A DNA stretch of 58,995 nucleotides from Gemmatimonadota bacterium (GCA_019347645.1 JAHWKZ010000001.1:1-58995); one strand, 5' to 3'; positions 31,110 through 49,517 are shown, numbered from the stretch's first letter. Program-made: numbers and translations. The notes: generated from the sequence alone by a model not told the origin.

Positions 31110-34100
31110 TCACCCGCCGTTCGTTCGCAGCCTCAAATGGATGGCGGTCCCCGCTGGACGGCGACGCTCCCACTCCACCGATCCGCCCCAGGTCTCGACG
31201 GTCCGCTTCACGATGGCGAGGCCCAGCCCCGTCCCCCGCGTCTTGGTCGAGAAGGACGGCTCGAACAGCCGATCGGTGGCGTCCGCCGACAGACCGGTTC
31301 CGTCGTCGACCACGGAGACACGCGCCTCCTCGGCGTCCCCGGCGAAGTCGATCTCGACCGCCACGCGACCCTTTCGGGCGGCGGTTCCGAGCACCGCCTC
31401 GCGGGCGTTCTGCAGCAGGTTCACCAGCACCCGCCGGAAGCCCTCGGCCTCCCCCAGGACCGGTCGGGCCTCGCCGGTGACCTCGAGCGCGTAGTCGATC
31501 TTCTCGTCGCCCGGCCGGAACAGCTCGATGGCGTCCCGGGCCACCGCCACGGCGTCGAACGGCTCGACCACGGTCGGCTGGGGAACGCCGAACCGGGCGA
31601 AGGAGCCGGCGATCCGCTCCAGGCGGTCGATCTCGGAGAGCACGAGATCGAGGTTGCGATGGAAGAGCCGCTCGAAGTCGGGTGCGCGGTCCTCGACGGT
31701 CTTCTCGAGGTGCTGCAGCGAGAGCTTCATCGGCGTGAGCGGGTTCTTGATCTCGTGGGCGACCTGACGCGCCATCTCCCCCCAAGCGAGCACCCGCTGC
31801 GACTGTACGTTCGCGGTGATGTCCTCGAAGGCGACGACCAGCCCGCGCTCCTCGCCGGCGCCGTCGACGAGGCCGGTGCAGACGACGTGGTAGTGGCGCT
31901 CCGCCCCCTCCCTGCGTAGGACCAGGTCGCGATCGGCGCGCGCTCCACGGACCGACGCCTCGGCGACGGCGCGCCAGAAGGGGGCGGCGGGGCGCTCCCT
32001 GCGGGCGAGCTCCTCCACCGATCGGCCGAGCACGTCCTCGGCCTCTTCGTCGAGCAGGTCGGCCGCTCGGTCGTTGAGCAGGCGCACCCCTCCGCGGGCG
32101 TCGAGAGCGACGACACCGGCCCCCACCGATGCGAGGATCGCCTGGACCCGCGACTTCTCCCGCTCGAGCGCCCGCTGGCTGGCGTCGAGGCGCCCGGCCA
32201 TGGCGTTGAACGCCCGCTGGACGCGGCCGAACTCGTCCCGCCGGGCGGGCGTCGACAACCGATAGGAGAGCCGGCCGGCGGCGATATGCCGGGTGCCCTC
32301 CTCGAGCGCCGACAGCGGCCGGGACATGAATCGGGCCAGCCCCCATCCCACGACGAGCAGGAATCCGATGGAGAACGCCGACAGCAGGAAGACTCCCTCG
32401 CCGAGGCGCTGGAGGTCGACCCGGACCCGATCCTCGCGGATCAGCAGCGGCGTCGCCAGGGCGTAGCCGGGCGGCACGTCGGGCTCGGAGAGCGCCCGGT
32501 AGGCGACCAGGAACGAGCGCTCGCCGAGCGTCGTCTCGTCGAAGGCGATCGGCCTTCGCTCGGCGAAGAGTGTCGCGTACACCGACCCGTCGATCCGGTC
32601 CGCGAAGACCCGGGAGGCGAAGATCTCCGGGCGGCTGGAGGCTCTCGTGTGGCCGCGCCAGTAGAGGACGAGGTCCTGCTGGAGGACGTCTCCGATCTCG
32701 CGAAGGCGCGCCGAGAGCTCACGGTCGGAGGCGATCGCGAGCGCCCGGTCGCGGGCCAGCAGCCGACTGGCTGCGTTCAACGCCTCGCTGGCCGCCGATC
32801 GTGTAGCCTCCTCGAGCTCGAGACGCGTGGTCCGGTACCCCAGGACGGCGTAGAGGGTGAGCGGGAGCGCCGCCACGGCGAGGAAGGCGAGGACGAGCTG
32901 GGCACGGAAGGAGCGGAGCGGGTTCTCCGCCGCGATCCGCGCGCGCCACGCGGTCCTGGCCCGCGGATCCCCCGCCCGCTCGAGCAAGCCCAGCGCCAGC
33001 GCCAGCGCGGAGGCGGCCAGGACGAACACCGCCGTTCCACGGGGCCCGGGGAGAAGGGGATCGAGCGGCATGGCGAGCTGGAGGGTGCCGACCTCGCCCT
33101 CCGCGTCGAAGGCCCGGACGCGAGTCAGCAAGGTTCGCGGCGGCGGCTCCTCTTCGGGGCCCAGTGTGGTGTACCCCGGTACGTCCGGCTCGATGCCGCC
33201 GCCGGCCAGGAGGTCGGTCAGCACGAAACCGGTCCCCTGCTCGCGCAGCTCCACGGAGCCCGTCGTCATCGCCACCGCCGTTCCGTTCCGCCGGCCCGCG
33301 GCGTCGAGGACGGGGACGACCGCCCACCGGACGGCGCCGGTGCCCTGCGATCCTCGGACGGGGATCTGGGCCGGCTCGAGTGCGGCCACGTAGCGCCGAG
33401 CGCGGTCGGTCAGGTCCTCGGGGGCGAGGGAGAACTGGCTCACGACCCGCCCCTCGGCGTCGAACAGAAACAGCCCGGTGGCGAAGTCGAGCTCGCGCAG
33501 CGGACTGCGGCTCCACAGGGCGAGCGCCGCGTCGCGGTTCTCCTCGGCGATCGCCTCGCTCACCGCCGGCTCGTTCGCGAGGAACTCCACGGTCCGGGTC
33601 ATCGTGTAGTCGAGCCACTGGCTGGACGCCTCGCCGATCCGCTGCGCCCGCTCGACGAGGAGCTCGTGCGCCGCCTGGACGCGCGCGAAGGCCGCCAGGG
33701 GAAGCGTGGCCAGGGCCCCCACGGCCGTCGCCACGATCGCGAGACGCACCAGCCGCACCCGCCGCGCCCCGCGCGGCCGGCCGACGGCGAGGGTGGCCCA
33801 GGCGCCGGCCACGATCGCGATCGCCGACGGCGCGACCACCTCGACCGGATGTCCCGCCATCGATGCTTCGGGGAGACGCCAAGCGGCGATGCCCACCGCC
33901 GCCCCCACCACCAGGGCGGCACCCCCTCCCCACGCGGGCCCGTCCGGCGTCCCCGCCCACCGCAGCACCCCCGCGAGGGCCACCACGACGGCCGCGCCGA
34001 ACAGGGCGAAGCCCAGCAGGACCAGGAGAAGCGGGGGAGCGAACAGGAGCGTGGGACTGAAGAACGCCGCGGGGCTCATGCCCTCGAGGGCCCCTTCGAG

Positions 34101-35405
34101 CGACGGGACCGCCAGTCGCCCGAGGCCCCACGTCACCGCGAGCGCCACGACGACCGTCAGGGTCGCCACCACCGGGCGGCGCCGACCCTCCCGCCGCGTG
34201 ACGAGGAGCGACCAGGCGGTCCAGGCCATGATCGCCGTCGCCGCCGCCGTCACCAGGAGGTGCCCCGCCGATCGGCCGGCCGGTCCGAAGGCCGGGGCCG
34301 CGAAACCCAGCGGGCTGAACCACTCTTCCGGCAGGAGACGAGCCGGGAGCCGGCTCTCGACCAAGAGGGCCCAGACGAGAGCGACGAGACCCAGCCGGAC
34401 GAGGAGGGCGGCGATCGCCTCGCCCCTTCCGCCGGCCCCGATCCGAGGTACGACCCGCGCCGTCCGTCGCGACGCTTCCCAGCCGACACCCACCGCCCAG
34501 GCCAGCGGCCACAGCAACAGCAGCGCCATCGCCCGCTCGCCCTGCCGCCGGCGCTCGGCCACGTACCGCTGGAGGAGGAAGCCTTCGCTGGCCACGCCCG
34601 CCACCACCTCCCGCGAACCCCCGACCACCGACGATCGCTCGGACGGGGCGAGGGTGTCTCCGCCGGGGAGGAGCCGGAACGCCAGATGCCGCTCCCGGGA
34701 GAGTCGGGCCAGGATCAGGTCCGGCTCGAGCGCCTCCCGGCGAAGCGGGGACTCGACCGCCCAGAGGTCCTTGACGACGACACGGAAGGTGTCGCGGCCG
34801 ATGGTCTGTGGCTTCCCCACGTATGCGATCACCCATCCGGTGGGGTTGCGCACCACCCCGCCGGCGAGCGCCGCCGCGATCGAGTCCGGCGGCAATCGCT
34901 CTCCGCGAGGATCGCCCCACCAGGCCCGCAGCGCGCCCTCAGAGTCGTAGAGCTCCAGGCCGATCCCCTCGGACAACCGTTCGGGCGTGGCTCGCCCCAG
35001 GGACACGAACCATTCGCTCTCCTCGTCCGGGAGCGGGAGCGAGCCTCCCGATGCCAGCCGCCGGGCCGTGGTCTCGGCCAGCTCCCGATCCTCGGCGAGT
35101 CGCGCGCTCAGCGCGCGTGCCACCCCGGCTCGCGCCTCGGATTCCAACCGGGCCGCCGCCCCTGGCCCCGCCATCGTCACCCGCCACGTGTCGAACGCCG
35201 TCCACGCCCAGATCCCGAGGTAGGCGATCAGGAGCCCGTAGGCGATCCTCGCGCCCCACCGCTCGGGGCGCCCCGCCACGGCGCCCCAGACCACAAGCCC
35301 GATGGCCGCCGCCACGGCCGCGACGGGCGCCGGGGCGGGGACGGCGCCGAATGACACCGCGGCGAGGCCGGTGGCGAGGAAGAGCGCGGCCGCGGCCCGT
35401 TTCAC
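31110..35405 (-). CDS. giant multi-pass sensor histidine kinase (NtrY-like HAMP-PAS-HisKA-HATPase C-terminus)
   Basis: 1431 aa; GTG start at 35405 (GTGA overlap with the exbD stop). Many hydrophobic helices in the first ~950 aa, then a HAMP-like region, AHEIKNPLTPM H-box, NLLQNAREA, DDGTGL and GTGLGLAIV. Confidence 0.85.
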   Translation of the reverse strand: MKRAAAALFLATGLAAVSFGAVPAPAPVAAVAAAIGLVVWGAVAGRPERWGARIAYGLLIAYLGIWAWTAFDTWRVTMAGPGAAARLESEARAGVARALSARLAEDRELAETTARRLASGGSLPLPDEESEWFVSLGRATPERLSEGIGLELYDSEGALRAWWGDPRGERLPPDSIAAALAGGVVRNPTGWVIAYVGKPQTIGRDTFRVVVKDLWAVESPLRREALEPDLILARLSRERHLAFRLLPGGDTLAPSERSSVVGGSREVVAGVASEGFLLQRYVAERRRQGERAMALLLLWPLAWAVGVGWEASRRTARVVPRIGAGGRGEAIAALLVRLGLVALVWALLVESRLPARLLPEEWFSPLGFAAPAFGPAGRSAGHLLVTAAATAIMAWTAWSLLVTRREGRRRPVVATLTVVVALAVTWGLGRLAVPSLEGALEGMSPAAFFSPTLLFAPPLLLVLLGFALFGAAVVVALAGVLRWAGTPDGPAWGGGAALVVGAAVGIAAWRLPEASMAGHPVEVVAPSAIAIVAGAWATLAVGRPRGARRVRLVRLAIVATAVGALATLPLAAFARVQAAHELLVERAQRIGEASSQWLDYTMTRTVEFLANEPAVSEAIAEENRDAALALWSRSPLRELDFATGLFLFDAEGRVVSQFSLAPEDLTDRARRYVAALEPAQIPVRGSQGTGAVRWAVVPVLDAAGRRNGTAVAMTTGSVELREQGTGFVLTDLLAGGGIEPDVPGYTTLGPEEEPPPRTLLTRVRAFDAEGEVGTLQLAMPLDPLLPGPRGTAVFVLAASALALALGLLERAGDPRARTAWRARIAAENPLRSFRAQLVLAFLAVAALPLTLYAVLGYRTTRLELEEATRSAASEALNAASRLLARDRALAIASDRELSARLREIGDVLQQDLVLYWRGHTRASSRPEIFASRVFADRIDGSVYATLFAERRPIAFDETTLGERSFLVAYRALSEPDVPPGYALATPLLIREDRVRVDLQRLGEGVFLLSAFSIGFLLVVGWGLARFMSRPLSALEEGTRHIAAGRLSYRLSTPARRDEFGRVQRAFNAMAGRLDASQRALEREKSRVQAILASVGAGVVALDARGGVRLLNDRAADLLDEEAEDVLGRSVEELARRERPAAPFWRAVAEASVRGARADRDLVLRREGAERHYHVVCTGLVDGAGEERGLVVAFEDITANVQSQRVLAWGEMARQVAHEIKNPLTPMKLSLQHLEKTVEDRAPDFERLFHRNLDLVLSEIDRLERIAGSFARFGVPQPTVVEPFDAVAVARDAIELFRPGDEKIDYALEVTGEARPVLGEAEGFRRVLVNLLQNAREAVLGTAARKGRVAVEIDFAGDAEEARVSVVDDGTGLSADATDRLFEPSFSTKTRGTGLGLAIVKRTVETWGGSVEWERRRPAGTAIHLRLRTNGG

Positions 35406-35818
35406 CGCGGCCGGTCCGGCTCCTCCGGCCGGGTCGCCACGACGAGCGCCTCCGCCCCGGCCCGTCGCGCGGCGTCCATCGCCTGGACCACCCGCCCGTG
35501 GGGCACGCGCTCGTCGGCTTCCAGGACGACCCGGTCGAGCCCCTCCCGCTCCATACGCGCGGAGAGCGTGTCGGCGAGGGCCTCCTGCCCCACGCGGTCC
35601 TCGCCCACCCAGGTCCCGCCGTCGGCGGCGAGACGCACGGTGAGCTCCTCCCGCGAGGCGACCGGCGCGGATCCCGCTTCGGGCAGCGTCAGGTCGATGC
35701 CCGGCCGCTCGAGGAACGTGGAGGTCACGACGAAGAAGATCAGCAGCAGGAAGACGACGTCGATCAGCGAGGTGACGTCGATCGCCGTCCTCCGGCGATG
35801 CGGCCTATCGAGGCGCAT
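35402..35818 (-). CDS. exbD: ExbD/TolR biopolymer transport protein
   Basis: AIDVTSLIDVVFLLLIFFVVTS single TM followed by a periplasmic domain; 138 aa. Confidence 0.88.
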   Translation of the reverse strand: MRLDRPHRRRTAIDVTSLIDVVFLLLIFFVVTSTFLERPGIDLTLPEAGSAPVASREELTVRLAADGGTWVGEDRVGQEALADTLSARMEREGLDRVVLEADERVPHGRVVQAMDAARRAGAEALVVATRPEEPDRPR

Positions 35819-36427
35819 CGGTCGTCGAGAAGCCGAGGATCTTCTTCATCAGTCGGTTGGTGTGCGCCTCGATGTCGAGGACGAGACGCTCCGCCCGGCC
35901 CACGAGCCAGTTGTACGCCACCAGCGACGGGATCCCGATCGACAATCCGGTGGCGGTCGTGATGAGGGCCTCCGAGATCCCTCCCGAGAGCCCCTGGCCC
36001 CTCCCGCTCCCTCCCGCGCCACCACCTCGAAGACGTCGATCATCCCGAGCACGGTGCCCAGCAACCCCAGCAGCGGCGCGATGGCCGCGATCGTCCCGAG
36101 GACGCCGAGTCCCCGCTCCAGCCGCGCCACCTCCTGCCGCCCCTGGTCCTCCACCGCTTCCCGCATCTCCTCCCGGGACCGACCGCGGAACTCGAGGGCG
36201 GTCAGGACGAGAGACGAGAACGGCCCCGGGTTCCGCCCGCAGATCGAGCGCGCCAGCGGCACGTCGCCGGGGCCCTGCAGGGTTTCGATGAGATCCACGA
36301 TCTCCGACTTGACGACCCGGTCGCGGCGCAGGTGCCAGGCCCGGTCGAAGACGATCCACAGCGCGAGGACCGAGCATGCCGCGAGCGGGACCATCAGCAC
36401 GCCGCCCTGGAGGAGCGTCTCCCACAT
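35805..36427 (-). pseudogene. exbB: MotA/TolQ/ExbB proton channel, reading frame broken by a 1-nt indel
   Basis: The N-terminal 2/3 (MWETLLQGGVLMVPL...LGLLGTVLGMIDVFEVVA) is in the frame of ORF 35849..36427. The C-terminal third (GLSGGISEALITTATGLSIGIPSLVAYNWL) is in the frame of ORF 35805..36425. The switch lies in the G/C run near 35991-36001. Confidence 0.75.
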
Positions 36428-36430: not shown

Positions 36431-37345
36431 CTATCGCTCCGGGACCACATTGAAGTAGAAGTGGGCGGTGACCTCGAGGTACGGCTCCGGGAAGTCCGGC
36501 GGGAGAGGCTCGTAGTCGGCCGCGCCCTCGAGGGCGTCGGTGGCCACGTACTGGAGGCCGTCCACCCCCCGATGGTCGAGGAGCTGGAGGGACGTCAACC
36601 GGCCGTCGGGGGCGATCCGGAATCGGACCCGGGTGACCCAGGCGGCCGTGCCGTAGTAGAAGGCCGCGGGCGGGGAGATGTGCTCCTCGACCCTCCGCTT
36701 GAGGCGCTCCATGTACGGGCCCCAGCGCCAGGCGGTCGTGTTGAGGCTGAATTCTTTGTCGTACGCCGCCTGGGTCAGCCGCTGGTCGACCTCCGGCACC
36801 GGAAGCGCCCCGTCGCCCGGCGGCTCGCGCAAGCGCGGGGTGGCCATCGGCAGCGCGAGTCGGGGGTCCACCGCCGGGGAGGCGTTCGATGGCGGCCCGT
36901 CGTCGTCCTCGGCCTCCCGGACGGGCTCGGGGAGGGGCTCCGCCTCGGAGGCGCCCCGGGCGCCGGACGCCGGAGCGCCGCTCGAGCGTGGGGTGGTGGG
37001 CGCCGGCGCCGGGCCAGCCGAGAATGCCGCCCCCTCGGGCCGCTCCGGCGGGGCGTTCGGTTGCGCCGCCCTGGCATCCGTCGACGACAGATCGCTCGGC
37101 TCCTCCGGCGGCTCCGCCTCTACGGGCTGGGGATCCACGAACCGGAAGACCATCGGCTCGTCCGCCTCGGAGAAGGCTTCCTGGTTCCCGACCCCGACGA
37201 AGTCGCGGACGGGTGCCACCAGAGCCGCATGGAGGAGCAACGACGCCGCGAGGGCGATTCGGGAGGATCGATCGTCCAGCATCTTCTGCCTGAGACGATC
37301 AATATACCCCGCGGGTTCCCTGGACCGTACCCGAAGGGAGTCCAC
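36431..37345 (-). CDS. TonB-like energy transducer
   Basis: N-terminal anchor IALAASLLLHAALVAPV, a Pro/Glu/Ala-rich linker, and a C-terminal VTRVRFRIAPDGRLTSLQLLDHRGVDGLQYVATDAL TonB_C-like domain. The start is either GTG 37345 or ATG 37282. Confidence 0.65.
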   Translation of the reverse strand: MDSLRVRSREPAGYIDRLRQKMLDDRSSRIALAASLLLHAALVAPVRDFVGVGNQEAFSEADEPMVFRFVDPQPVEAEPPEEPSDLSSTDARAAQPNAPPERPEGAAFSAGPAPAPTTPRSSGAPASGARGASEAEPLPEPVREAEDDDGPPSNASPAVDPRLALPMATPRLREPPGDGALPVPEVDQRLTQAAYDKEFSLNTTAWRWGPYMERLKRRVEEHISPPAAFYYGTAAWVTRVRFRIAPDGRLTSLQLLDHRGVDGLQYVATDALEGAADYEPLPPDFPEPYLEVTAHFYFNVVPER

Positions 37346-37373: not shown

Positions 37374-38066
37374 TCAGCCGGAGGTCACGGGGGCCTCGGC
37401 GAGCGACCGCGCGCGCGCGACGGGGCGATGCCGGCGGAGCTCGTTGGCGTCGCCGGTCAGCAGCGTTGCGATGTCGGCCGACGCCATCACCAGGGCCGAG
37501 AGGCCGGCCCAGGCGCGCAGGATGTCGGGACCGGGAGCGATGAAGAGCACCAGGACGGCGGTGTGGGGAGCGACCCCCAGCCAGATCCTCCAGGCCGCGA
37601 CTCCGAGGCGCCCGAGCCGCGCCCTCCACGCCCGTCGCCGCCGGGATCCGACGATCGCCGCCGCGGCGATGAGGGGCGCCGCGACCGCCACGGTCGCGAC
37701 GGCGTAGACGATCGTGACCGGAAGCAGCGCCCACTCGGCCCACCCCCGCCCCACCGGGGCGCGTCCGCCGCCCCGTCCGTTCGCCCGATAGCGGGCCTTC
37801 TGCATCAGCTCGAAGCCGCGGAAGTGACGGACGAGGTAGTCCCGCGCGGCGTTGATCTCCTGGATCTTCCGCGTCGCCCGAGCGCGTTCCTCCACCGTCT
37901 CGAACCGGTCGGGATGGATGCGCCTGGCGCGCGCCCTGTGCGCCCGGTGGACGTCCTCGATCTCGATCGGCGGGAAGAGCCCGAGCGCGCGCAGCGAGTC
38001 GCGATAGCGGACCTCGTCGTACCGGCCGCGCCCGCCCGGCGGGAGCGGTCGGTCGAGCTGCTTCAT
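37374..38066 (-). CDS. membrane-anchored J-domain protein
   Basis: Inner ATG at 38066 (ATGA overlap with the AAA+ stop). J domain with HPD (ARRIHPDRFETVEERARATRKIQEINAARDYL), followed by 3-4 hydrophobic helices. Confidence 0.7.
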   Translation of the reverse strand: MKQLDRPLPPGGRGRYDEVRYRDSLRALGLFPPIEIEDVHRAHRARARRIHPDRFETVEERARATRKIQEINAARDYLVRHFRGFELMQKARYRANGRGGGRAPVGRGWAEWALLPVTIVYAVATVAVAAPLIAAAAIVGSRRRRAWRARLGRLGVAAWRIWLGVAPHTAVLVLFIAPGPDILRAWAGLSALVMASADIATLLTGDANELRRHRPVARARSLAEAPVTSG

Positions 38067-39532
38067 GGCTCGGCGGTCCCGGGGACGGCCGCCCCGGTCG
38101 GCGGAGCCGACGCGGGCGATGCCGACGCGGGCGGAGCCGACGCGGGCGGAGCCCCGCTCTCCGCGTCCCCGACCCCCTCCCCCGGCATGTCCAGGAAATA
38201 GGAGCGGCAGGCGCGGTCCAGCAGGCGGGTCGAGAGGATCGGCTCGACGTCGAGGTACCGGGCCTCGTCGCAGAGGTGGTCGAGCAGGTCGCGCGGGTGG
38301 CACGAACGGGCCGGGATGGACCGCCTCTCGTAGTATTCGCGCCAGATCCAGCGGACGGCGTCCGGCTCGAAGGCGATCTGCCGGGCGATGCATCCCCTGC
38401 GAAAGATCTGCAGGTACTGCTCGAACGTCGGGTCCGGGACGAGGATCTTGTAGTGGATCCGCCGCAGGAAGGCCTCGTCCACGAGCTCGAGCGGATCGAG
38501 GTTCGTGGCGAAGACGAGCAGACAATCGAAAGGCACCGGGAACTTGTGGCCGGTGTGCAACGTCAGGAAGTCGAGGCGCTTCTCGAGCGGCACGATCCAG
38601 CGGTTCAGCAGGTCCCGCGGTCGCACGATCTGCCGCCCGAAATCGTCGATGATCAGGACCCCGCCGTTGGCCTTCACCTGGAAGGGGGCCTGATAGATCT
38701 TCGTGTGCGGATCGTACTGGAGGTCGAGCTGATCGAGCGTCAGCTCTCCGCCGGTGAACACGACCGGCCGGCCGACGCGCGCGAAGCGCCGGTCGTAGGG
38801 AGTGGGCTTCGCGAGCCATTCGGGCTCCTCGTCCGCCGCGGCGGCCGGACCCACCTTGCGGTCCGGCAGCGAAGAGTGGTGGACCGGGTCGTGGACGACC
38901 ATCACGTGGCCGCCGATCTCGACCGCGTAGGGCACGTACAGCTCGCCGCCCATCATCCGCGCGATCGCCTCCGCCAGCGTGGTCTTCCCGTTCCCGCTGT
39001 CGCCGTAGAGGAACATCGACTTGGCCGAGTTCACCGCCGGCCCGATCTGCTCCAGGAAATCGGGATCGAGAACAAGGTGGCTGAAACCGGACTCGATCGC
39101 TTCCCGGTCGAGTCGGGCGTTGCGGATCGAGCCGGCGGCCACCCAGGCGCGGTACTTCTCGAGCGGGACCGGGGCCGGTCCCACGTACTGGCCCGCGGCC
39201 ATCGATTCGCGCGCCCGCTCGCGTCCCTTGGAGGTGAGGTCGAAGGTATAGCCGCCGCGGCCGTGACCCTTGGCGCCGCGGACCTCGAGCAGCATCCGCT
39301 GCTGGAGGTCCTGGAGCCGGTCGTCGAGGATCGAGAACGGGAGCCGGACGTCCTCGACGAGACGTTGCCCCGTCCGCGCGCCCCGGACGTAGAGGGTCTT
39401 GAGCACGAGCTCGGCGACCGTCTCGGCGGAGAGACCGCTCTCCGCCAGCGTCCCCGGCACCTTCGGCGCCTTCTCGGCCGCGAACTGCGGCCGCTGGTTC
39501 AGGCTGGAGCGGGGGCGCGCGTCCAGGGTCAC
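38063..39532 (-). CDS. AAA+ ATPase of unassigned family
   Basis: GTG at 39532 (GTGA overlap with the DUF192 stop). Walker A FLYGDSGNGKTT, Walker B GVLIIDDFGRQ, sensor-like LVFATNL, FLRRIHYKI. C-terminal PPASAPPASASPASAPP repeat tail. Confidence 0.75.
   Translation of the reverse strand: MTLDARPRSSLNQRPQFAAEKAPKVPGTLAESGLSAETVAELVLKTLYVRGARTGQRLVEDVRLPFSILDDRLQDLQQRMLLEVRGAKGHGRGGYTFDLTSKGRERARESMAAGQYVGPAPVPLEKYRAWVAAGSIRNARLDREAIESGFSHLVLDPDFLEQIGPAVNSAKSMFLYGDSGNGKTTLAEAIARMMGGELYVPYAVEIGGHVMVVHDPVHHSSLPDRKVGPAAAADEEPEWLAKPTPYDRRFARVGRPVVFTGGELTLDQLDLQYDPHTKIYQAPFQVKANGGVLIIDDFGRQIVRPRDLLNRWIVPLEKRLDFLTLHTGHKFPVPFDCLLVFATNLDPLELVDEAFLRRIHYKILVPDPTFEQYLQIFRRGCIARQIAFEPDAVRWIWREYYERRSIPARSCHPRDLLDHLCDEARYLDVEPILSTRLLDRACRSYFLDMPGEGVGDAESGAPPASAPPASASPASAPPTGAAVPGTAEP
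38091..38150 (-). repeat. in-frame 15-bp tandem repeat (about 4 units) in the AAA+ C-terminal tail
   Basis: gccgacgcgggcgat / gccgacgcgggcgga / gccgacgcgggcgga at 38106-38150, preceded by a diverged unit at 38091-38105. Encodes SAPPA-type pentapeptides. Confidence 0.7.
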
Positions 39533-41816: not shown

Positions 41817-43354
41817 CGCTCCGCCCCGGCGAAGAACTCGGCGTTGGAGAACAGCCCCGCCGGAAGGTCGATGCCGCTGGTGCGCAGCCGCTCGCCGAAC
41901 CGCGGACGGATCCCGGTTGCCTTGAACCGGCCCAGGACCCTTCCGTCCTCGTCGATCCCCTGCCGCTCGAAGGTGAAGATCTCCTGCATGGTGATGATGT
42001 CCCCCTCCATCCCGACGATCTCCGAGATCGACGACAGCTTCCGTCTCCCGTCGGAGAGACGCGAGACCTGGAGCACCACGTCGATCGCCGCGGCGATCTG
42101 CTGGCGCATCGCCTTCTCGGGGAGATTGAGGTTGGCCATCGAGATCATCGTCTCCAGACGGCTGAGCGCGTCCCGCGGGCTGTTGGCGTGGAGGGTCGTC
42201 AACGAGCCGTCGTGGCCGGTGTTCATCGCTTGCAGCATGTCGACCGCCTCCGACCCGCGAACCTCGCCCACGATGATCCGGTCCGGCCGCATCCGCAGCG
42301 CGTTGATCACCAGCTGACGGGCCGTGACCTGCCCCTGCCCCTCGACGTTCGGCGGGCGCGTCTCGCACCGGACCACGTGCGGCTGGCGGAGCTGGAGCTC
42401 GGCCGAGTCCTCGATGGTCACGATCCGCTCGTCGGGCGGGATCGACGACGACAGGACGTTGAGCAGCGTCGTCTTCCCGGCGCCGGTGCCGCCGGAGATC
42501 AGCACGTTCAGCCGGGCCTTCACGATCCCCTGCATGAGCTCCAGCATCGCCGCGGTCAACGTCTCGTAGCGGAGCAGGTCCTCGGCGGAGAGCGCGTCGG
42601 TCTTGAACTTCCGGATCGAGACGTGGGGCCCATCCACCGCCAGCGGCGGGATGATCGCGTTGACGCGCGAGCCGTCGGCCAGGCGGGCGTCGACCATCGG
42701 GCTCGAGTCGTCGATCCGCCGGCCCACCGCCGAGACGATCCGATCGATCACCTGAAGCAGGTGCTTGTTGTCCTTGAACCGGACGTCGGTCCGCTGGAGC
42801 CGGCCGTCCCGCTCGATGAAGACGCGGTCGTAGGTGTTCACCAGGATGTCGGAGACCGACGGGTCCTGCAGCAGCGGCTCGAGGGGCCCGAGGCCGAAGA
42901 TCTCGTTCAGGACCTGCTCGACGAGCGATTCGCGCTCCTCGAAGTTGAGCGGCGCCGATTCGCGGGCCAGGAGGTCCTGGACGACCTTGCGGATCTCGGA
43001 CACGACCATGTCCCGGTCGTGGGAGTCGAGGTTCGAGAGGTTCAGCCGGTCGACGAGCTGTTTGTGGATCCGGCCCTTGATGTCGTGGATGACGCTGCCG
43101 TCGTCGTCGGTTTCGTGCGAGGCGCGCCGGCGCTCCGAGAGTCTCGGTGGAGGCGGGTCCGCGGCGCCTGCGAGCGGTCCGTTCCCTTCCTCCCGGGTCC
43201 GCTCCTCGGCTTCCTCGGAGACGAAGGCCGGAACTCCCTCCTCCTCCTCGACGTCGTCGGGCGACTCGGGCGGCTCCCACGGGAGTCGGTCACGGTTGAC
43301 CTCCCCATCGTCACCGAACAGGGGCACCGAATACGGATCGTGATCGTTCGTCAC
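41813..43354 (-). CDS. tadA: Tad/Cpa secretion ATPase (CpaF/TadA)
   Basis: GTG at 43354 (GTGA overlap with the tadZ stop). [54 protein letters not shown]. Confidence 0.93.
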
Positions 43355-44634
43355 GATTCACCTCCGACCACAGCGGGTGGGGGAAGAAGGAACGCGTCCT
43401 CGATCTCCTGGTCCATCCCGAGCATCGTCTTCATCCGGTCCACCGAGCGGGCGAGCCAGCCCCGCTTCCTCGGGACGGCGCCGGGCACGCCGGCGATCTT
43501 CGCGCCCAGTGCCTGGAGCTCCTCGGAGTAGAGCGACTTGTCGTCGAGGAGCACGGGGCGGCCGGTGTTGATCGCGTAGATGACTGCCTCGTAGTCGTTG
43601 GGCAACGTCCAGTAGACGTCCATGTCCAGCGCCCGCTCGACGTCGTCGAGGGTGATGTCGTTGTCCGGCTGATAGCGGTTGACGATCAGACGGACCTCGT
43701 GGCCCTTCTCGCTCATCCGCTCGAGCAGATGCTGCGCGCGCTGGATGTTCCTGAGCGACGGCAGGTCGACGTTGGCGACGAGGTACACCTCGTCGGCCAG
43801 GTCGAACGTCGCCAGGGTGCGAGCCGTGAAGGAGTTCGAGGTGTCGACCACCACGTAGTCGTAGTGCTGGCGGAGGAAGTGGAGGATCTGGCGGATCTGA
43901 TCCGCCGTCACCGCCTCCGCCTTCTCGGGATGGTACGGCGCGGAGAGGACGTGGACGCCCGTATCGTGGCACTCGATGAACGAGGCCAGGAGTCCGGCGT
44001 CCATCCGATGGACGTTCTTGGCCAGGTCGACGAAGTTGAACCGCGGCTCGATTCCCAGGAACAGCGCGCTCTCGCCGAGCTCGAGGTCGAGGTCGACGAC
44101 CACGGTCTTCTTGCCGGTCAGGCGTTGCATCTGGATGGCCAGGTTTGTGGCCACCGTGGTCGAGCCGGCGCCCCCCTTGGCCGCGAAGAACGCCAGCAGC
44201 TTGCCGGGCTGGCGCGGACCGCTGCCGTTCGCCCCTCCGACCATCTTCTTCCGCGCGCGGGTCACCGCCGCGGCCAGCGACTCCACGGTGACGGGCTTCG
44301 GCAGATAATCGCCGATCCCCGCCTGCATCGCCTGCATCAGGAACTCGGGCGACCCCTCGCCCCCGGCGGCGATCATGCGTCTCTTGGGGTTCGTCTCGGC
44401 GAGGAACTGGGCCAGCTTCACGCCCAGGACCGGGTCTTCCTCGAGGTCGAGGAAGATCAGCTCGGGATCGACGTACCGGAGCTCCTCGAGATGGCCGTGG
44501 CTGATCTTCTTGAACGGCACCACGATCTCGAACTCGATGTCGATCGGGTGGTCGGCGTCGATCCCCTCCCGGACCGCGGTCCGGAAGTCCCCGTCCGTCG
44601 ACACGATCGCGGCGCGTATGGCCTGGCTTTCCAT
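43351..44634 (-). CDS. tadZ: TadZ/CpaE: atypical receiver domain fused to a ParA/MinD-like ATPase
   Basis: Inner ATG at 44634 with GAGGAG RBS. Receiver-like N-terminus, then [18 protein letters not shown] deviant Walker A. Confidence 0.88.
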
Positions 44635-44648: not shown

Positions 44649-45797
44649 TTACTCGACGAGGCGGACGAACTTCACCTCGGGGCCCTCGGTGGCGCCGCCG
44701 AGGCCGTCGGAACCCACGCCGACTCCCGTGGCGAACAGAAAGCGTCCCACCACGTCCTTCCCCTTCATCTCCTCGACCCAGAACGCCGTGATGTTGTTGA
44801 AGACGATCGGCTTCTTGCCGGGGTCCACGGGTTGGGTCGGGTCGAACAGCGGAATGTTGGCGACCCGGGGGCTCGCCTTCCACGGCACATATCGGCTGTT
44901 CACCACGCTGTCGGCGGCGAGATCCCAGCTGGCGTCCGGATCCTGGTCGATGAGGTCCTCGACTCCCTGACGCGTGGGTCCGGTCATGTTGCCGTTCTCG
45001 ACCATGTACGCCTCTCCCAACCGGATCACCGAGGTGTTGCAGTTGGCGATGTTCCAGCGGTACCGAGACGCCCCGGTCGCGGGCGACCCGGACACCTGGG
45101 GGACGTCCCACGGGAAGTACCAGGAGGGGACGATCGCTTCCTGCGGCGTCCCCTCCTTGAGGACGATCGGACGACCGAAGTCGTCCTCGTACGTCGTCCC
45201 GTCGGGATCCACCCCGTTCTGCGAGGGCTGGCCGTTTCGGAAGTCGGACCCGTAGCCGGTGTCGGTCGGGTGGTAGTACTCGCCCGAGTCGTACCGATCG
45301 TCGAGGTCGACGTCGTCCCAGGCGTCGGGAACCGCGAAGGGCTTCAGGCACGTGGCGGCCCCGGCCGGCGACGCCTCGGCGGTGGCGCGCGCCGCGACGT
45401 CGACTTCGTCCACGCCGAAGACTCGCGCGAACCAGGTCGCTACGGCGAGCCCGCGATCGGCCGTGCGACGGACCGTCACGGTGACCCGCATGCGAGGCAC
45501 GTCGACCTCCACGTCCTCGGGGACGAGCGCCACCGCGTCCTTCCGGACCGAGTTCGCCGCCGCGTACTGGACCGCGATGTCGCGGGCTCGCTGTTCGTTG
45601 TCCGGCGCTTCGATGAACGAGGCCGCTCCGGCGAGGGCGGCCGAGTCCGCCGCCCGCTGGGCCTCGCCGCGGGCGGTGAACAGCATGCCGAGGTCGATCG
45701 CGAGGGCGAGGATGGACAGCAGCGCCGTCATCGCCACCGCCGCGAGGACGATCGTCGAACCCCGCTCGTCGCGCAGGAGGGACGTCGGCCGCTTCAC
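44649..45797 (-). CDS. tadG: TadG-like pilus assembly protein
   Basis: GTG at 45797 (GTGA overlap with the cpaC stop). ERGSTIVLAAVAMTALLSILALAIDLGMLFTARGEAQRAADSAALAGA is a Tad_N-type N-terminus. Confidence 0.75.
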   Translation of the reverse strand: MKRPTSLLRDERGSTIVLAAVAMTALLSILALAIDLGMLFTARGEAQRAADSAALAGAASFIEAPDNEQRARDIAVQYAAANSVRKDAVALVPEDVEVDVPRMRVTVTVRRTADRGLAVATWFARVFGVDEVDVAARATAEASPAGAATCLKPFAVPDAWDDVDLDDRYDSGEYYHPTDTGYGSDFRNGQPSQNGVDPDGTTYEDDFGRPIVLKEGTPQEAIVPSWYFPWDVPQVSGSPATGASRYRWNIANCNTSVIRLGEAYMVENGNMTGPTRQGVEDLIDQDPDASWDLAADSVVNSRYVPWKASPRVANIPLFDPTQPVDPGKKPIVFNNITAFWVEEMKGKDVVGRFLFATGVGVGSDGLGGATEGPEVKFVRLVE

Positions 45798-47191
45798 TCG
45801 TCCCCCGTCGGTCCCACCGGAGCGGGCGCGATCGGCTCCTTCAGCGCGTCGTCCCAGTCCCACGTCTCCGGCTCGCCGGTCGGGACCGGGGGCGGGGCCT
45901 CCGATGGCTGCACGATCCGCGGCGTCACGAGCACGAGCAGCTCGGTCCGATTCTCGCGGATCCCCTTGCTGCTGAAGAGCCTACCCAGGATCGGGATGTC
46001 TCCCAGGATCGGGAACTTGTCGACGTTCTCGGTGATCGAGTTGTCGAGGAGTCCTCCGATCGCGAACGTCTGGCCGTCCCGAAGCTCGACCTCGGTGGAG
46101 GCCCTCCGGCTCAGCAGGGTGGGGATCTGGAAGCCCGACAGCTGGAGACCGTTCGCGAAATCGAGGCTCGACACCTCCGGGGCGACGGTCAGCCGGATGT
46201 TCCCCGCGTTGGTGATGTGGGGCGTGAAGTTGAGCCGGACCCCGAACTCCTTGAACAGGATGGTGATGTTCGTGCCGCCCGCGGTCGCCTGCGGGACGGG
46301 ATAGGGGAACTCCCCGCCCGCCAGGAACGACGCCTCCTGCCCGTCCATGGCCAGGAGGTTGGGCTCGGCCAGGCTTCGGAACATCCCCTTCGCGGAGAGG
46401 GCCCGGATGAACGCCCCGACGCTCTCGCCCTCGTGGAACAGATAGAGGTTCACGACGTCGCTGAAGGTCTGCTCCGGCCCGACCGGGTCGTTGGCGAAGT
46501 TGCCCGCCGGCGGGGTGTGCTGGCCCGTGGAGAGGGCCCCCTCGTCGTCGCCCCGCGGGTTCAGCGGATCGAACCGGAGGATGTTGATCCCGTACTCCTT
46601 GATGGCGGTGCGGTTGACCTCCGCGAAGCGGACCTGGAGGAGGATCTGGTCGGGGGCCGGGACCTGCAGGTTGTCGATGACCGTCGCGCCGGTCGCCGCG
46701 GCGATCTCCAGCGCCCGTCGCGCCACCGAAGCCTCCTTCAGCGTACCCGACAGGATGTAGGTGTCGCCGCTGGCGGTGACGTCGATCCGCTCGTCGGGGA
46801 ACAGCGCCAGGAAGTGGCGCTCGAGGGCCTCGGCGTCGACGGTGACCTCCACCTCGTGGAGCCGCCGTGCCCCCACCTGATCCCACAGGACCAGGGTGGT
46901 GGTGCCGGTCTGCTTCCCATGGATCATCACCTCGGTCGGCGAGACGACGACCGCCTCGGCGACGTCGGCGTCGGCCACCGAGACCCGGCGCAGCGTGGTG
47001 CCGTTGGAGACCAGGGCGGCCTTGCCCACCGCGACGGTGACGGATCGATAGTCGGAGCCGGCGTCCTGACCGGCCACCGCCGGCGGCCGCGCCAGGCCAA
47101 ACGCGACGACGCCCAGGGCGAGCGCGACCAGGCGCGCCGGCCTCCGATGCCGATGGAGGCGGCCGCGAGTCCTACTCTCGTTGGTTTTCAT
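45794..47191 (-). CDS. cpaC: Flp pilus secretin CpaC/RcpA
   Basis: Signal peptide, BON-like region, and a secretin C-domain (EPNLLAMDGQEASFLAGGEFPYP, DKFPILGDIPILGRLFSS). GGGAGG RBS. Confidence 0.92.
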   Translation of the reverse strand: MKTNESRTRGRLHRHRRPARLVALALGVVAFGLARPPAVAGQDAGSDYRSVTVAVGKAALVSNGTTLRRVSVADADVAEAVVVSPTEVMIHGKQTGTTTLVLWDQVGARRLHEVEVTVDAEALERHFLALFPDERIDVTASGDTYILSGTLKEASVARRALEIAAATGATVIDNLQVPAPDQILLQVRFAEVNRTAIKEYGINILRFDPLNPRGDDEGALSTGQHTPPAGNFANDPVGPEQTFSDVVNLYLFHEGESVGAFIRALSAKGMFRSLAEPNLLAMDGQEASFLAGGEFPYPVPQATAGGTNITILFKEFGVRLNFTPHITNAGNIRLTVAPEVSSLDFANGLQLSGFQIPTLLSRRASTEVELRDGQTFAIGGLLDNSITENVDKFPILGDIPILGRLFSSKGIRENRTELLVLVTPRIVQPSEAPPPVPTGEPETWDWDDALKEPIAPAPVGPTGDE

Positions 47192-47203: not shown

Positions 47204-48031
47204 CTAGAAGGTGGTTTCGGTTCGCTTGTCGCCGTTGTACGTGACGATGGTGGTGCCCCGGCTGACCGGGGCCGACGAGCGGCGCGCGGTGCGCGGCGCG
47301 GGCGCCACCACGGCCGCGCCCACGAGCGTCTTGGCTTTCACGCCGTCGGTCTCGACCTCGGCCTGGTCGAGGGTATTGCGGAGCGCGAGCTGGATGCGAC
47401 CCTCGGTGGACGACAGCGTCAGCGTCTCGGCCTCCTCGGGCGAGACGAGGAGCGTGATGACGGTCACCGTCTGCGGCTCTCCGTCCACGTCCCGCTTGTA
47501 CTCCTGGCCGGCCGCCAGGACCTGGACGTTCTGAAGGACGAGCCGGCTGGCGGCCTCCTCCCGCTCGTTGGTCGGGTTCAGGGTCACCAGAACGTCGACG
47601 CGCGTGCCGGCCCTGATGAATCCGGCCACGCCGATGACTTCGTCGACCTTCACGCTCACCGCCCGCTTCCCCTCGGGGATCACGATCGGCAGGCCGCCGC
47701 CCTCCTCCTTCGTCGCGAGCTTCGCCGCCAGGAGAGGCTCGTTGGCCGACACGTGCTGGATCAGGCCCCGGCCGACGACCGCGTCCACCGTCCCCGCGTA
47801 TCCGGGCGGCACGAATCGCGCGGGCCAGTCCACGACCTTCACGTCCGCGGAGGTGAGCACGCGACCGAGCTCGAGGTCCCGCGCGGCCACGACCACCCGG
47901 GACGACTCGCTGGCGGTCGCCGCCTTCGGGCTCAACGGCCGGTCGAGATGGTTCAGCGCGAGCCAGCCCGCGGCGCCGCCCGACACGAGCGCCATCACGA
48001 GCGCGATCCACTTCCGACGCTTCCTTCTCAT
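47204..48031 (-). CDS. cpaB: Flp pilus assembly protein CpaB/RcpC
   Basis: MRRKRRKWIALVMALVSGGAAGW anchor, SAF-like VVVAARDLELGRVLTSADV. AGGAGGAG RBS. Confidence 0.88.
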   Translation of the reverse strand: MRRKRRKWIALVMALVSGGAAGWLALNHLDRPLSPKAATASESSRVVVAARDLELGRVLTSADVKVVDWPARFVPPGYAGTVDAVVGRGLIQHVSANEPLLAAKLATKEEGGGLPIVIPEGKRAVSVKVDEVIGVAGFIRAGTRVDVLVTLNPTNEREEAASRLVLQNVQVLAAGQEYKRDVDGEPQTVTVITLLVSPEEAETLTLSSTEGRIQLALRNTLDQAEVETDGVKAKTLVGAAVVAPAPRTARRSSAPVSRGTTIVTYNGDKRTETTF

Positions 48032-48053
48032 CGTTCTCCTCCTGCGTGGGCGT

Positions 48054-48503
48054 CTATTCGTTCCGCATCGTGACGGCGGTCGACAGGCTGATCGCCCCCG
48101 GGACCGTGGATGACTCCCCGAGCAGGGAGACGACCGGGCCCAGGAACGCGAACTCGTAGGGATATTCGATCTCCACCTGGCTCGGGGTGCCGACCCCGTT
48201 CCCCTGGCCGGTGATCGTGATCGTTCCCAGCGCGGGGTCGAGCGCGGCGTCGGCGAGATAGCTCTCGATCGTCGTGCGCACGTCCGACTCCGCGTTGGTC
48301 GGAATGACCGCGGCGCGAGCGCCCTCGCGGGCCGCGTTGGTGAGGACCTGGTAGACGTTCCAGGCGCGTCCCATCTCGAAGATGCCGACCAGCAGGGCCA
48401 GCAGGATCGGCAGGACGATCGCCAGCTCGACGAGCGACTGGCCGCGCTCGCCCCGTCCCTCGGGGCGCCGCGCGAGAAGGGTGTAGCCGCTCACGCCCAC
48501 CAC
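48054..48503 (-). CDS. tadE: TadE-like pseudopilin
   Basis: ERGQSLVELAIVLPILLALLVGIFEMGRAW TadE-type N-terminus. Several in-frame GTG starts at 48494-48503 overlap the cpaA stop. Confidence 0.85.
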   Translation of the reverse strand: MVGVSGYTLLARRPEGRGERGQSLVELAIVLPILLALLVGIFEMGRAWNVYQVLTNAAREGARAAVIPTNAESDVRTTIESYLADAALDPALGTITITGQGNGVGTPSQVEIEYPYEFAFLGPVVSLLGESSTVPGAISLSTAVTMRNE

Positions 48504-49000
48504 CCGACGAGCGCGCCGAGCGCGATCGCCACCCCGTAGGGGACGGCGAGCGCGCCCGGCGTCGCGAGTGTGCGGACGGGAACGGCGCCTCTCCCCGGCA
48601 GGACCCTCCGGACGAGGGCCCGGCAGTGAGCGAGGGTCTCGCCGATCGCGCCGTGGCGGGCGGCGAGGGTGATCGCCATCGCCCCACCCGCGACCGCGGT
48701 CACCAGAAGGACGACGGGAAGGCCGTCGATTCCGACGAACGCGCCCACGGCCGCCAGCAGCTTGGCGTCCCCGCCACCGAGCCCGCCCGCCAGGACGAGG
48801 GGCAGGGCCAGCGCCAGCGCCACTCCCGCGCCGAGGACGCCGACGGCGAACGCGTCCACGCCTTCCGGAACGCGCAGAGCCAGCCCGGCCACCAGGCCGG
48901 TCAGGGTGAGCGCGTTCGGGATGCGTCGGCTCGCGACGTCGGTCGCGACGGCGGCCGCCACCAGGGCGACGAGAAGGAGGGTCTGGAGCGCGTCGGTCAT
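48491..49000 (-). CDS. cpaA: prepilin peptidase CpaA/TadV (A24 family)
   Basis: Inner ATG at 49000: MTDALQTLLLVALVAAAVATDVASRRIPNALT and GGLGGGDAKLLAAVGAFVG. Confidence 0.85.
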   Translation of the reverse strand: MTDALQTLLLVALVAAAVATDVASRRIPNALTLTGLVAGLALRVPEGVDAFAVGVLGAGVALALALPLVLAGGLGGGDAKLLAAVGAFVGIDGLPVVLLVTAVAGGAMAITLAARHGAIGETLAHCRALVRRVLPGRGAVPVRTLATPGALAVPYGVAIALGALVGWWA

Positions 49001-49031
49001 GGGCCCGATCTTCGTGCGAGGGGAAAGAGTG

Positions 49032-49066
49032 GATCGGGGCCCGCTCCCCCGAGACGAACCCCGATC
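49032..49066 (-). terminator. 8-bp hairpin after the pilin genes (possible partial terminator)
   Basis: GATCGGGG (49032-49039) pairs with CCCCGATC (49059-49066), about 30 nt after the flp stop and followed on the minus strand by CACUCUUUCCCC. Confidence 0.3.
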
Positions 49067-49095
49067 CTTTGTCGCGGCCTGAACGGGCGCTCCGG

Positions 49096-49263
49096 TTAGC
49101 CGAGCGCCGCAGCGATGTTTTCGAAGACGGTCATGATGTTCCCGCCCAGCAGGGTGACCGCCGCGATCACCACGATGGCGATCAACGCGATCAGCAGGGC
49201 GTACTCGGCGAGGTCCTGACCGGCCTCGTCGTTCCACAGGGCGTTCCAGAGTAGTGCCAGCAT
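49096..49263 (-). CDS. flp: Flp family type IVb pilin (downstream copy, 55 aa)
   Basis: GGAGGAAACGCA-ATG. MLALLWNALWNDEAG-QDLAEYALLIALIAIVVIAAV has the Flp G/xxxxEY processing motif plus a hydrophobic helix. Confidence 0.9.
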   Translation of the reverse strand: MLALLWNALWNDEAGQDLAEYALLIALIAIVVIAAVTLLGGNIMTVFENIAAALG

Positions 49264-49307
49264 TGCGTTTCCTCCCCGGCGCTCAGGCCGCGTTGGGGTG
49301 TCTGAGA

Positions 49308-49517
49308 TCAGCTGAACGGCAACGTGGCGACGATGTCGTTGTACATCGCCACGAGCGCGTCGCCGAACAGGGCGACGGCGCCCACCACGACGAGCGCGAT
49401 GAGCCCGATCAGGATCGCGTATTCCGCGAGGTCCTGACCGTCCTCGTTCCGCCGATCTCCCGGCGCGTCCCGCGACGGGGTGCAGTCCTGGATCTCGAGC
49501 GGAGCTCGCTGGCTCAT
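49308..49517 (-). CDS. flp: Flp family type IVb pilin (upstream copy, 69 aa, long leader)
   Basis: GAGGAAACG-ATG. MSQRAPLEIQDCTPSRDAPGDRRNEDG-QDLAEYAILIGLIALVVVGAV. Confidence 0.85.
   Translation of the reverse strand: MSQRAPLEIQDCTPSRDAPGDRRNEDGQDLAEYAILIGLIALVVVGAVALFGDALVAMYNDIVATLPFS

Follow-up and report, generated by a model that had tools for sequence, protein, structure and literature searches.

A Tad pilus locus of Gemmatimonadota with DUF192, AAA+ ATPase and sensor kinase genes downstream of tadC, probably in at least two transcription units

Tad pili serve adhesion and biofilm formation in many phyla, and to our knowledge their disassembly, quality control and regulation are poorly understood outside a few Proteobacteria. 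Here we ask how far a Tad pilus operon extends in an uncultured Gemmatimonadota bacterium, and which of the genes that follow its canonical part belong with the pilus. The window analysed is a complete 58,995-bp contig of a metagenome-assembled genome (MAG; GCA_019347645.1, JAHWKZ010000001.1:1-58995), and the gene cluster in question runs along its minus strand from the first pilin gene, flp1 (49517), to the stop codon of a histidine kinase gene (31110). A first-pass annotation had described this region as an uninterrupted supercluster of 20 genes in which transcription and translation appear to continue past tadC through nine further genes, and had argued that these act with the pilus. We favour a different arrangement, with a probability of roughly 0.6: at least two tandem units on the same strand, one from flp1 to a J-domain protein gene and one from tonB to the kinase gene, with pilus-linked additions rather than a single operon.

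Gene order and putative transcription units

Because the DNA is about 70% G+C, genes were called from third-position GC content (GC3) and frame analysis together with open reading frame (ORF) calls, and they were named with Pfam and NCBIfam models, which agreed with the gene identities given earlier. The calls give 18 genes rather than 20, in continuous minus-strand coding from flp1 to the kinase stop. In order of decreasing coordinate, the Tad set (flp1, flp2, cpaA/tadV, tadE, cpaB, cpaC, tadG, tadZ, tadA, tadB and tadC) is followed by genes for a DUF192 protein, an AAA+ ATPase, a membrane J-domain protein (J-protein), a TonB-like protein, ExbB, ExbD and a polytopic histidine kinase. The region holds a complete locus for a Tad/Flp (type IVc) pilus.

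Much of what had been reported about the junctions was borne out by our junction table. The six 4-nt overlaps already named (cpaC/tadG, tadZ/tadA, tadA/tadB, DUF192/AAA, AAA/J and exbD/kinase) are all present, and tadC/DUF192 is a seventh; cpaA and tadE overlap by 13 nt, and exbB and exbD by 14 nt after repair of a frameshift. The widest intergenic gap is, as had been stated, the 95 nt ahead of cpaA, lying between flp2 and cpaA. The second widest is the 91 nt between the J-protein gene and tonB, with the tonB start placed at the ATG at 37282 by alignment to the ortholog of the closest relative, L094. Every gene between 49517 and 31110 is indeed on the minus strand. This co-directionality is not special to the cluster, as the run of minus-strand genes begins at 51860 and reaches 24420 or beyond, with a regulator gene and a TPR-like gene at its upstream end and, downstream, a receiver-domain gene, the signal recognition particle (SRP) RNA gene, dnaX, ybaB, recR, a CDP-alcohol phosphatidyltransferase gene and cinA. 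The shared strand by itself therefore carries little weight.

Between the J-protein gene and tonB we found a putative -10 hexamer, TATATT (37301 to 37306, minus strand), 18 nt upstream of the tonB ATG. This hexamer is found once in the window, counting both strands, and is likewise single in each of nine related loci of 15-24 kb that were checked. In 20 of 21 related loci it stands 5' of tonB, or of the kinase gene if tonB is absent; the remaining locus, L005, has TATACT instead. A scan with the sigma-70 consensus, which may not be the consensus of this phylum, gave 0 matches in the region against 0.5 expected. Four relatives (L015-L018) carry a canonical hairpin followed by seven T between the J-protein gene and the TATATT element, ahead of tonB, and in L017 this is the top-listed terminator-like site of its scan. 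In relatives, the J-tonB gap varies between 21 and 916 nt, with a median of 236, and every other junction is 20 nt or less. Because TATATT is conserved and canonical terminators are present in four relatives, we place a predicted transcription-unit boundary at the J/tonB junction. The genes from tonB through exbB and exbD to the kinase appear, on this pattern of conservation, to be a unit with its own promoter, which is at odds with the continuous transcription to the kinase suggested earlier.

The flp2-cpaA gap contains a GC-rich hairpin with a U-poor tail (49031 to 49067, minus strand) that has a folding energy of -31.0 kcal/mol (z -3.8), with 2 of 300 shuffles equally stable. At the same flp-cpaA position, 30 of 34 relatives have a hairpin of different, unrelated sequence. 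It is likely an attenuator, a partial terminator or an RNA-stability element. With this hairpin in one gap and the conserved TATATT in another, "uninterrupted" was too strong a word for the cluster. Tight spacing and a common strand are insufficient to call an operon, and conserved cis-elements divide this "supercluster".

Could the region still be one uninterrupted 18.4-kb operon from flp1 to the kinase, with all nine extra genes as parts of the pilus machine? Its junctions are all 95 nt or less, nine of them overlaps; a consensus scan of the window's minus strand turned up no intrinsic terminator; and the entire gene order recurs in L094 and also in L004, L006, L009, L012, L017, L018, L025 and L086. 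Set against this are the conserved and unique TATATT ahead of tonB or the kinase gene, the canonical J-to-tonB terminators of L015-L018 and the conserved hairpin after flp. The gene content of the far end is also unsteady, since tonB is absent from 3 and exbBD from 5 of 13 loci in the lineage that carries the J-protein (J lineage), and exbB is frameshifted in the window. Judged from these sequence elements, a single operon from flp to the kinase seems distinctly unlikely.

DUF192, the AAA+ ATPase and its membrane partners

For the genes directly after tadC, synteny was followed in a set seeded with the AAA+ protein, comprising 85 non-redundant Gemmatimonadota loci whose AAA+ proteins are 56 to 83% identical to that of the window; the counts for DUF192 and tadC cover loci with enough sequence. 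The DUF192 gene (39529 to 39888, minus strand; PF02643, E 2e-15) was found immediately upstream of the AAA+ gene (38063 to 39532, minus strand) in 82 of 83 loci, and tadC (39885 to 40814, minus strand; PF00482) upstream of it in all 70 that could be counted. Of 82 loci, 56 join DUF192 to the AAA+ gene by a 4-nt overlap, and in 59 of 80 loci tadC and DUF192 overlap by 4 or 1 nt; both counts are upper estimates because start-codon choice favours small gaps.

Because a set seeded with the AAA+ protein risks circularity, metagenomes were also scanned with a TadC profile, counting loci in which tadC is followed by 1,200 nt or more. Downstream of tadC, 28 of these 40 loci have the AAA+ gene and 31 have DUF192. 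Three orders were observed: tadC-DUF192-AAA; tadC-AAA-x-DUF192; and tadC-x-DUF192 with the AAA+ gene further on. The second order is that of Acidobacteriota of the order Vicinamibacterales, where one locus reads flp, flp, cpaA, cpaB, secretin, tadZ, tadA, tadB and tadC, and then AAA (4-nt overlap), a PEMT-like membrane protein and DUF192. Plasmids offer two further cases: in Moraxella bovis DUF192 follows tadC, and in Streptomyces it lies near a Tad locus.

The linkage of DUF192, AAA and tadC thus outlasts shuffling of their order across phyla, and is therefore good evidence of a functional tie. By conserved gene order, DUF192 and the AAA+ ATPase have long belonged to the end of the tad operon. 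The earlier proposal that the coupled extra genes act with the pilus, and the suggestion to look for recurrence of their synteny, can thus be answered in part. The proposal holds best for DUF192 and the AAA+ ATPase, which follow tadC in nearly all AAA+-seeded loci of the phylum and are linked to it in two phyla; the J-protein and kinase genes are constant within one lineage only, and TonB-ExbBD is optional even there. Overall, the observation is partly confirmed and its interpretation partly supported. Because they are kept with tadC in two phyla despite reshuffling, DUF192 and this non-PilB-type ATPase are testable candidate Tad components, and we nominate the pair, DUF192 and a Lon-like AAA+ ATPase, as candidate accessory components. 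For PF02643 (DUF192), this would be a first consistent genomic context. Our literature search found no description of an association of these two genes with Tad loci in Gemmatimonadota or Acidobacteriota, and as far as that search reached, the locus represents a Tad system with additions not previously described for these phyla. The DUF192 protein is predicted to be cytoplasmic, with no transmembrane (TM) segment and no signal peptide; a sequence search of the PDB gave no match for it, and its relation to 3PJY and 3M7A is taken from the literature only.

The AAA+ protein (489 aa) has no covering family in Pfam, only weak P-loop matches. Its motifs are a Walker A (GDSGNGKT), a Walker B (LIIDDF), a sensor-1 (ATN) and an RR pair that would supply the arginine finger. 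In an alignment of 108 sequences, G177, G180, G182, K183, D296 and D297 are invariant, and N344, R357 and R358 are at least 90% conserved. An AlphaFold2 (AF2) model from this alignment reached a pLDDT (predicted local distance difference test) of 90.3 and a predicted TM-score of 0.86; it replaced a poor first model from 17 sequences (pLDDT 59, generic Foldseek hits). The model has an N-terminal winged helix, predicted confidently (pLDDT 96-99, residues 21-140), a core with β-hairpin inserts, and a lid domain. The top ranks in Foldseek were the Pyrococcus furiosus Q8U0N8 hexamer (8P49), the archaeal LonB ATPase domain (4ZPX, 3K1J) and RuvB, with MCM and sigma-54 activators as other structural neighbours. 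Against chains A, B and F of 8P49, the target-normalised TM-score is a moderate 0.53-0.62 (root-mean-square deviation 3.6-3.9 A over ~300 columns). By its modelled fold, the protein is a Lon/RuvB-like (HCLR) group AAA+ ATPase.

Other assignments were considered for this protein. Spastin, Vps4 and midasin were suggested by PDB sequence searches, matched at the P-loop only, and were superseded by the structure comparison. A Lon protease was ruled out, as the protein has no Lon-type C-terminal Ser-Lys protease domain and ends in a disordered Pro/Ala tail. A sigma-54 activator was likewise ruled out, since there is no GAFTGA loop and no HTH_8, and PF00158 matches residues 160-192 only, confined to the P-loop. 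A specificity of the protein to Gemmatimonadota was rejected as well: the family has 1,231 representatives (50% clustering) at E below 1e-30, with named members from other phyla.

The winged helix raises the question of whether the protein is instead a regulator that binds DNA through this domain, its ATPase controlling tad transcription or an unrelated target. The confident prediction of the domain, structural neighbours among DNA motors (RuvB, MCM) and sigma-54 activators, and family members that stand alone in other phyla would all suit such a role. Yet the closest structures are Lon-type unfoldase modules, the GAFTGA loop and HTH_8 are absent with Pfam sigma-54 matches limited to the P-loop, and the coupling to DUF192 with a small membrane protein always next suits a membrane-associated machine better. 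We therefore give little credence to a regulator and prefer to read the protein as a pilus-linked ATPase.

A membrane protein is always encoded next after the AAA+ gene, and its family differs by lineage. In the window this is the J-protein (37374 to 38066, minus strand; 230 aa), which has an N-terminal J-domain and C-terminal TM helices. Its HPD motif is invariant in 10 aligned orthologs, all 10 of which match PF00226 (best E 4.9e-8), the window copy itself scoring 22.1 bits, under the gathering score. The J-protein was found only in the lineage whose AAA+ proteins are at least 65% identical to that of the window, and it is constant there (21 loci in all, 18 of them in the set used to class the proteins that follow the AAA+ gene). 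Elsewhere in the Gemmatimonadota, the position is taken by a coiled-coil protein with one TM segment in about 48 loci and by a GT39-like membrane protein in 7 loci; a PEMT-like membrane protein follows the AAA+ gene in Vicinamibacterales and in L093.

The coiled-coil/TM protein (e.g. L001 11362-12081), found in most Gemmatimonadales, is a conserved protein of ~200-240 aa without a Pfam match, often joined by a 4-nt overlap. Its coiled coil is N-terminal and includes an RRLRR motif, and the protein further has a single TM segment and a repeated periplasmic region. A PEMT/ICMT-like protein stands directly after the AAA+ gene in Vicinamibacterales and in one stand-alone context (L093 10001-12096 and L175 10001-11983). 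The AAA+ gene and a small membrane-protein gene may together be the basic unit of the AAA+ family.

TonB, ExbBD and the kinase

The proposed second unit begins with the TonB-like gene (36431 to 37282, minus strand), whose product has an N-terminal TM segment with an SxxxH motif (SLLLH) and a Pro-rich linker. Its TonB_C match is weak (PF03544, 20.6 bits, E 6e-4, against a gathering score of 24.6). In the frameshifted exbB (35805 to 36427, minus strand), one nucleotide is deleted between 35997 and 35996 when compared with the intact L094 gene, so that PF01618 spans profile positions 13-79 of 127 and the C-terminal half is in another frame; the orthologs in L094 and L004 are intact at 207 and 217 aa. 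The frameshift is either an assembly error or a recent pseudogene. The deletion falls within a G-rich stretch (window 35990-36005, minus strand). ExbD (35402 to 35818, minus strand; PF02472, E 3.5e-30) has a TM aspartate (LIDVVF) within its TM segment. Of 13 J-lineage loci with enough sequence, TonB is present in 10 and ExbBD in 8, and the motor is considered optional because it is absent from part of them. Two loci without tonB and exbBD, L013 (10987-11080) and L014 (3059-3150), have an ORF of ~15 codons after TATATT, possibly an exbD remnant or a leader peptide, with its stop codon overlapping the start of the kinase gene (GTGA).

The kinase (31110 to 35405, minus strand; 1431 aa) has about 10 TM segments with large loops, followed by HAMP, PAS, HisKA and HATPase_c domains, with the H-box AHEIKNPL. 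It is present in all 13 J-lineage loci with enough sequence, or in 11 of 11 without the two that were kinase-seeded, and the exbD/kinase overlaps are conserved in relatives. Its orthologs are 52-58% identical and were found only in the same lineage (the search returned 10 proteins), a restriction to be taken as tentative because low-complexity words saturated the candidate list and made the search insensitive. The genes after the kinase vary, being dnaX, radical-SAM genes or a second, partial Tad cluster. The last of these was seen in 6 of 10 loci, which places the kinase between two Tad clusters.

The second cluster (L006, L008, L009, L012, L017 and L086) is on the same strand and contains flp, sometimes cpaA, tadE, cpaB, tadG, a tadZ-like gene, tadB and tadC; that of L086 has no tadA and no secretin gene. 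A second cluster is absent from the window, where the kinase stop is followed by a 480-bp AT-rich spacer (GC 44-55% versus ~70%). A stand-alone receiver-domain protein (30086 to 30604, minus strand; PF00072, 31 bits) is also encoded after the kinase; in L006 and L086 its best matches by tblastn fall on the N-terminal end of the second tadZ copy. The gene is probably a relic of tadZ from a lost second Tad cluster; the AT-rich spacer, together with these best matches, suggests that it was left by a deletion. We considered the protein as a partner of the kinase and rejected this, as it is missing after the kinase in most relatives and best matches the second tadZ copy. The cluster encodes no DNA-binding response regulator, its receivers being only those of TadZ and the TadZ-derived relic. 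In the TadZ receiver, the positions corresponding to D13, D57 and K109 of CheY are kept throughout the phylum, while those of D12 and T87 are not.

These observations bear on whether the tonB-exbB-exbD-kinase genes have anything to do with the pilus at all. They could form, for example, an uptake or envelope-stress module that is a stable neighbour of the Tad genes in one lineage. A promoter-like element of their own, a minus-strand run that goes on into housekeeping genes, the absence of the unit from most Gemmatimonadota Tad loci and the lack of an adjacent DNA-binding response regulator would all fit that explanation. It sits less easily with a kinase gene that is joined to the Tad-DUF192-AAA-J block in 13 of 13 loci despite differing downstream genes, that is flanked by two Tad clusters in 6 of 10, and whose kind of sensor region was found only in this lineage. 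In addition, TonB-like motors and two-component systems are known to control type IV and Tad pili (PMC5285504, PMC3767616). We regard an unrelated module as unlikely, and continue with two tandem units of which the second is probably also pilus-linked.

Several findings weigh against our reading and should be considered together. The promoter and the attenuator are predictions whose basis is conservation, and the J-tonB gap of the window holds no convincing terminator; because there is no good terminator ahead of it there, read-through from the first unit into the tonB unit is likely. The AAA+ gene stood alone, with no Tad or DUF192 genes nearby, in four of four inspected contexts chosen by way of the AAA+ protein: Acidobacteriota (Korobacteraceae), a 'Deltaproteobacteria' MAG, Dormibacterota and one further contig. 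These four contexts rule out that the protein is always Tad-linked, and because homologs stand alone in other phyla, the family is not intrinsically a Tad component. Among the 83 Gemmatimonadota loci, the sole exception to DUF192 linkage is L083 (Gemmatimonadales). The nearest solved structure, 8P49, is itself uncharacterised. Given the exbB frameshift, either the TonB-ExbBD motor may no longer work in this organism or the assembly may be in error. Finally, phosphorylation of TadZ is uncertain because three of the five canonical CheY residues are kept. As a separate observation, L083 comes from the same MAG as L028 and carries a second AAA+ copy, with no DUF192 or tadC within 790 nt upstream.

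How might such a locus work? The gene map, junctions, synteny, cis-elements, frameshift and fold class are observed, whereas the biochemical roles and transcription itself are inferred. The hairpin after flp2 would probably stop or stabilise most pilin transcripts, and read-through past it would yield a translationally coupled message from cpaA to tadC, DUF192, the AAA+ gene and the J-protein gene. DUF192 and the AAA+ ATPase could then act in the cytoplasm as a remodelling or quality-control ATPase whose target is either pilin or the TadA/TadB/TadC/TadZ platform. The product of the small membrane-protein gene that comes after the ATPase gene would tether the ATPase to the inner membrane, and in one lineage its J-domain would additionally recruit DnaK. 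The polytopic kinase may sense an envelope or pilus-related signal, aided, where present, by the TonB-ExbBD proton-motive-force motor, for which a contact with the secretin is possible by comparison with PocAB-TonB3 and PilQ. The most likely phosphorylation target of the kinase would be the receiver-like N-domain of TadZ.

Taken at its fullest, this scheme would make DUF192, the AAA+ ATPase and an interchangeable membrane adaptor an unrecognised Tad accessory machine of Gemmatimonadota and Acidobacteriota, with a lineage-specific, TonB-ExbBD-coupled kinase signalling to TadZ, a reading that we find rather doubtful as a whole. If it were true, the machine might use ATP to extract or recycle Flp pilin or platform subunits. 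We know of no dedicated retraction ATPase in Tad systems, and such a machine would provide disassembly or quality control otherwise missing from them. In one lineage, the TonB-ExbBD-coupled kinase would pass envelope or pilus-load signals to TadZ, and the kinase/TonB unit would be a possible route from envelope sensing to pilus assembly.

Tad genes, flanking features and comparison with known systems

The remaining Tad genes, all on the minus strand, are as expected for the system. Flp1 (49308 to 49517) is a Flp pilin with a long leader that matches PF04964 at E 3.8e-5, under the gathering score, while Flp2 (49096 to 49263) is over it at 36.8 bits; the processing motif G/QDLAEY was read in both translations as G-QDLA-EY. 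They are followed by the cpaA/tadV prepilin peptidase (48491 to 49000; PF01478, E 2e-17), a tadE-like pseudopilin (48054 to 48503; PF07811, E 4e-18), cpaB/rcpC (47204 to 48031; PF16976 and a SAF domain), the cpaC/rcpA secretin (45794 to 47191; PF00263, E 1e-47, and PF13629) and a tadG-like pseudopilin (44649 to 45797; PF13400). TadZ/CpaE (43351 to 44634) is a ParA/MinD-type ATPase with an N-terminal receiver domain (PF13614, PF01656 and PF00072, the last at 33.1 bits and over its gathering score), and its Pfam support comes from these ATPase and receiver models rather than from a TadZ-specific model. The tadA/cpaF secretion ATPase (41813 to 43354; PF00437, E 3e-66) and the tadB platform protein (40827 to 41816; PF00482) precede tadC. 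The core parts (TadV, secretin, RcpC/CpaB, TadZ through the models just named, TadA, TadB, TadC and TadE/G) all score over the Pfam gathering scores. RcpB and TadD had no Pfam or NCBIfam match within the cluster.

Upstream of flp1 lies a gene for a degenerate regulator resembling sigma-54 activators, with a Fis-type helix-turn-helix (49931 to 50929, minus strand; PF00158 partial, PF25601 and PF02954). It is without a receiver domain, a GAFTGA loop and the Walker B DE pair (LYIHGI replaces LFLDEI), and from its sequence is probably a Fis-type DNA-binding protein only. The regulator is also found 5' of flp in L012 (64% identity) and L079 (30%). Within the 413 nt upstream of flp1, a direct repeat CGGCAGAAT occurs as two copies 20 nt apart (window 49844-49872, minus strand), and this repeat may be a binding site for a regulator. 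By eye, no TGGCAC-N5-TTGC sigma-54 promoter was seen upstream of flp1, and no conserved block emerged when the sequences 5' of flp in the window and in L012 were aligned. The gene at the head of the locus (window 50973-51860) encodes 295 aa, with an N-terminus resembling a signal peptide and a weak TPR match (E 1e-3); the protein matched no family and could serve in the role of TadD. Elsewhere in the window are a tRNA-Sec gene (13700-13794, 74 bits, minus strand) and the small SRP RNA gene (29473-29569, 55 bits, minus strand), the latter just upstream of dnaX.

Several known systems resemble parts of this locus. Kram et al. reportedly described in 2008 a "termination cascade" in the Aggregatibacter tad locus, to which the terminator-like hairpin after the pilin genes here can be likened; by this analogy, the flp2 hairpin fits the terminator-like elements found 3' of pilin genes in other Tad loci. 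The closest structural matches to the AAA+ model, the archaeal LonB ATPase module and P. furiosus Q8U0N8 (8P49), share 14-18% identity with it, and the window protein differs in having no protease domain and an additional N-terminal winged helix. Membrane-anchored J-domain proteins of the DjlA type tether an HPD J-domain to the inner membrane and presumably recruit DnaK. The J-protein shares the tethered HPD J-domain, whereas its topology is reversed (J-domain N-terminal, TM helices C-terminal) and its gene, part of a pilus operon, shows translational coupling to the AAA+ gene.

For the second unit, two-component systems that flank flp/tad clusters offer a comparison, PprAB of Pseudomonas being one of them. 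Another, in Pectobacterium, lies beside flp/tad and regulates it, its sensor kinase encoded next to Tad genes as here (PMC3767616). The present locus differs from these flanking systems in that no DNA-binding response regulator is adjacent and a 1431-aa polytopic kinase is joined to exbD in an operon. In Pseudomonas aeruginosa, PocAB-TonB3 is needed for type IVa pilus production and polar placement, with a TonB3-PilQ N0 contact proposed (PMC5285504); there, ExbB/ExbD/TonB homologs serve type IVa pili, whereas the motor genes here lie within a Tad (type IVc) locus. They differ further from PocAB-TonB3 in being translationally coupled to a histidine kinase, optional within the lineage and, in the window, frameshifted in exbB.

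The Firmicutes provide a parallel for DUF192. In Bulleidia and Helcococcus, the tad operon has at its distal (3') end a gene for a DUF192 protein of about 110-130 aa, a position like that seen here (PMC12786226). There, DUF192 is followed by a coiled-coil Smc-like protein, whereas here it is followed, with a 4-nt overlap, by the AAA+ ATPase. Compared with the canonical Tad loci of Aggregatibacter (flp-tad) and Caulobacter (cpa), the pilin with its G/XXXXEY motif, peptidase, RcpC, secretin, TadZ/A/B/C and TadE/G are common to both and co-directional. In the Gemmatimonadota locus, by contrast, no rcpB or tadD was recognised, TadZ has a receiver domain that retains its Asp and Lys positions, and the operon runs on into DUF192, the AAA+ ATPase and the J-domain membrane protein.

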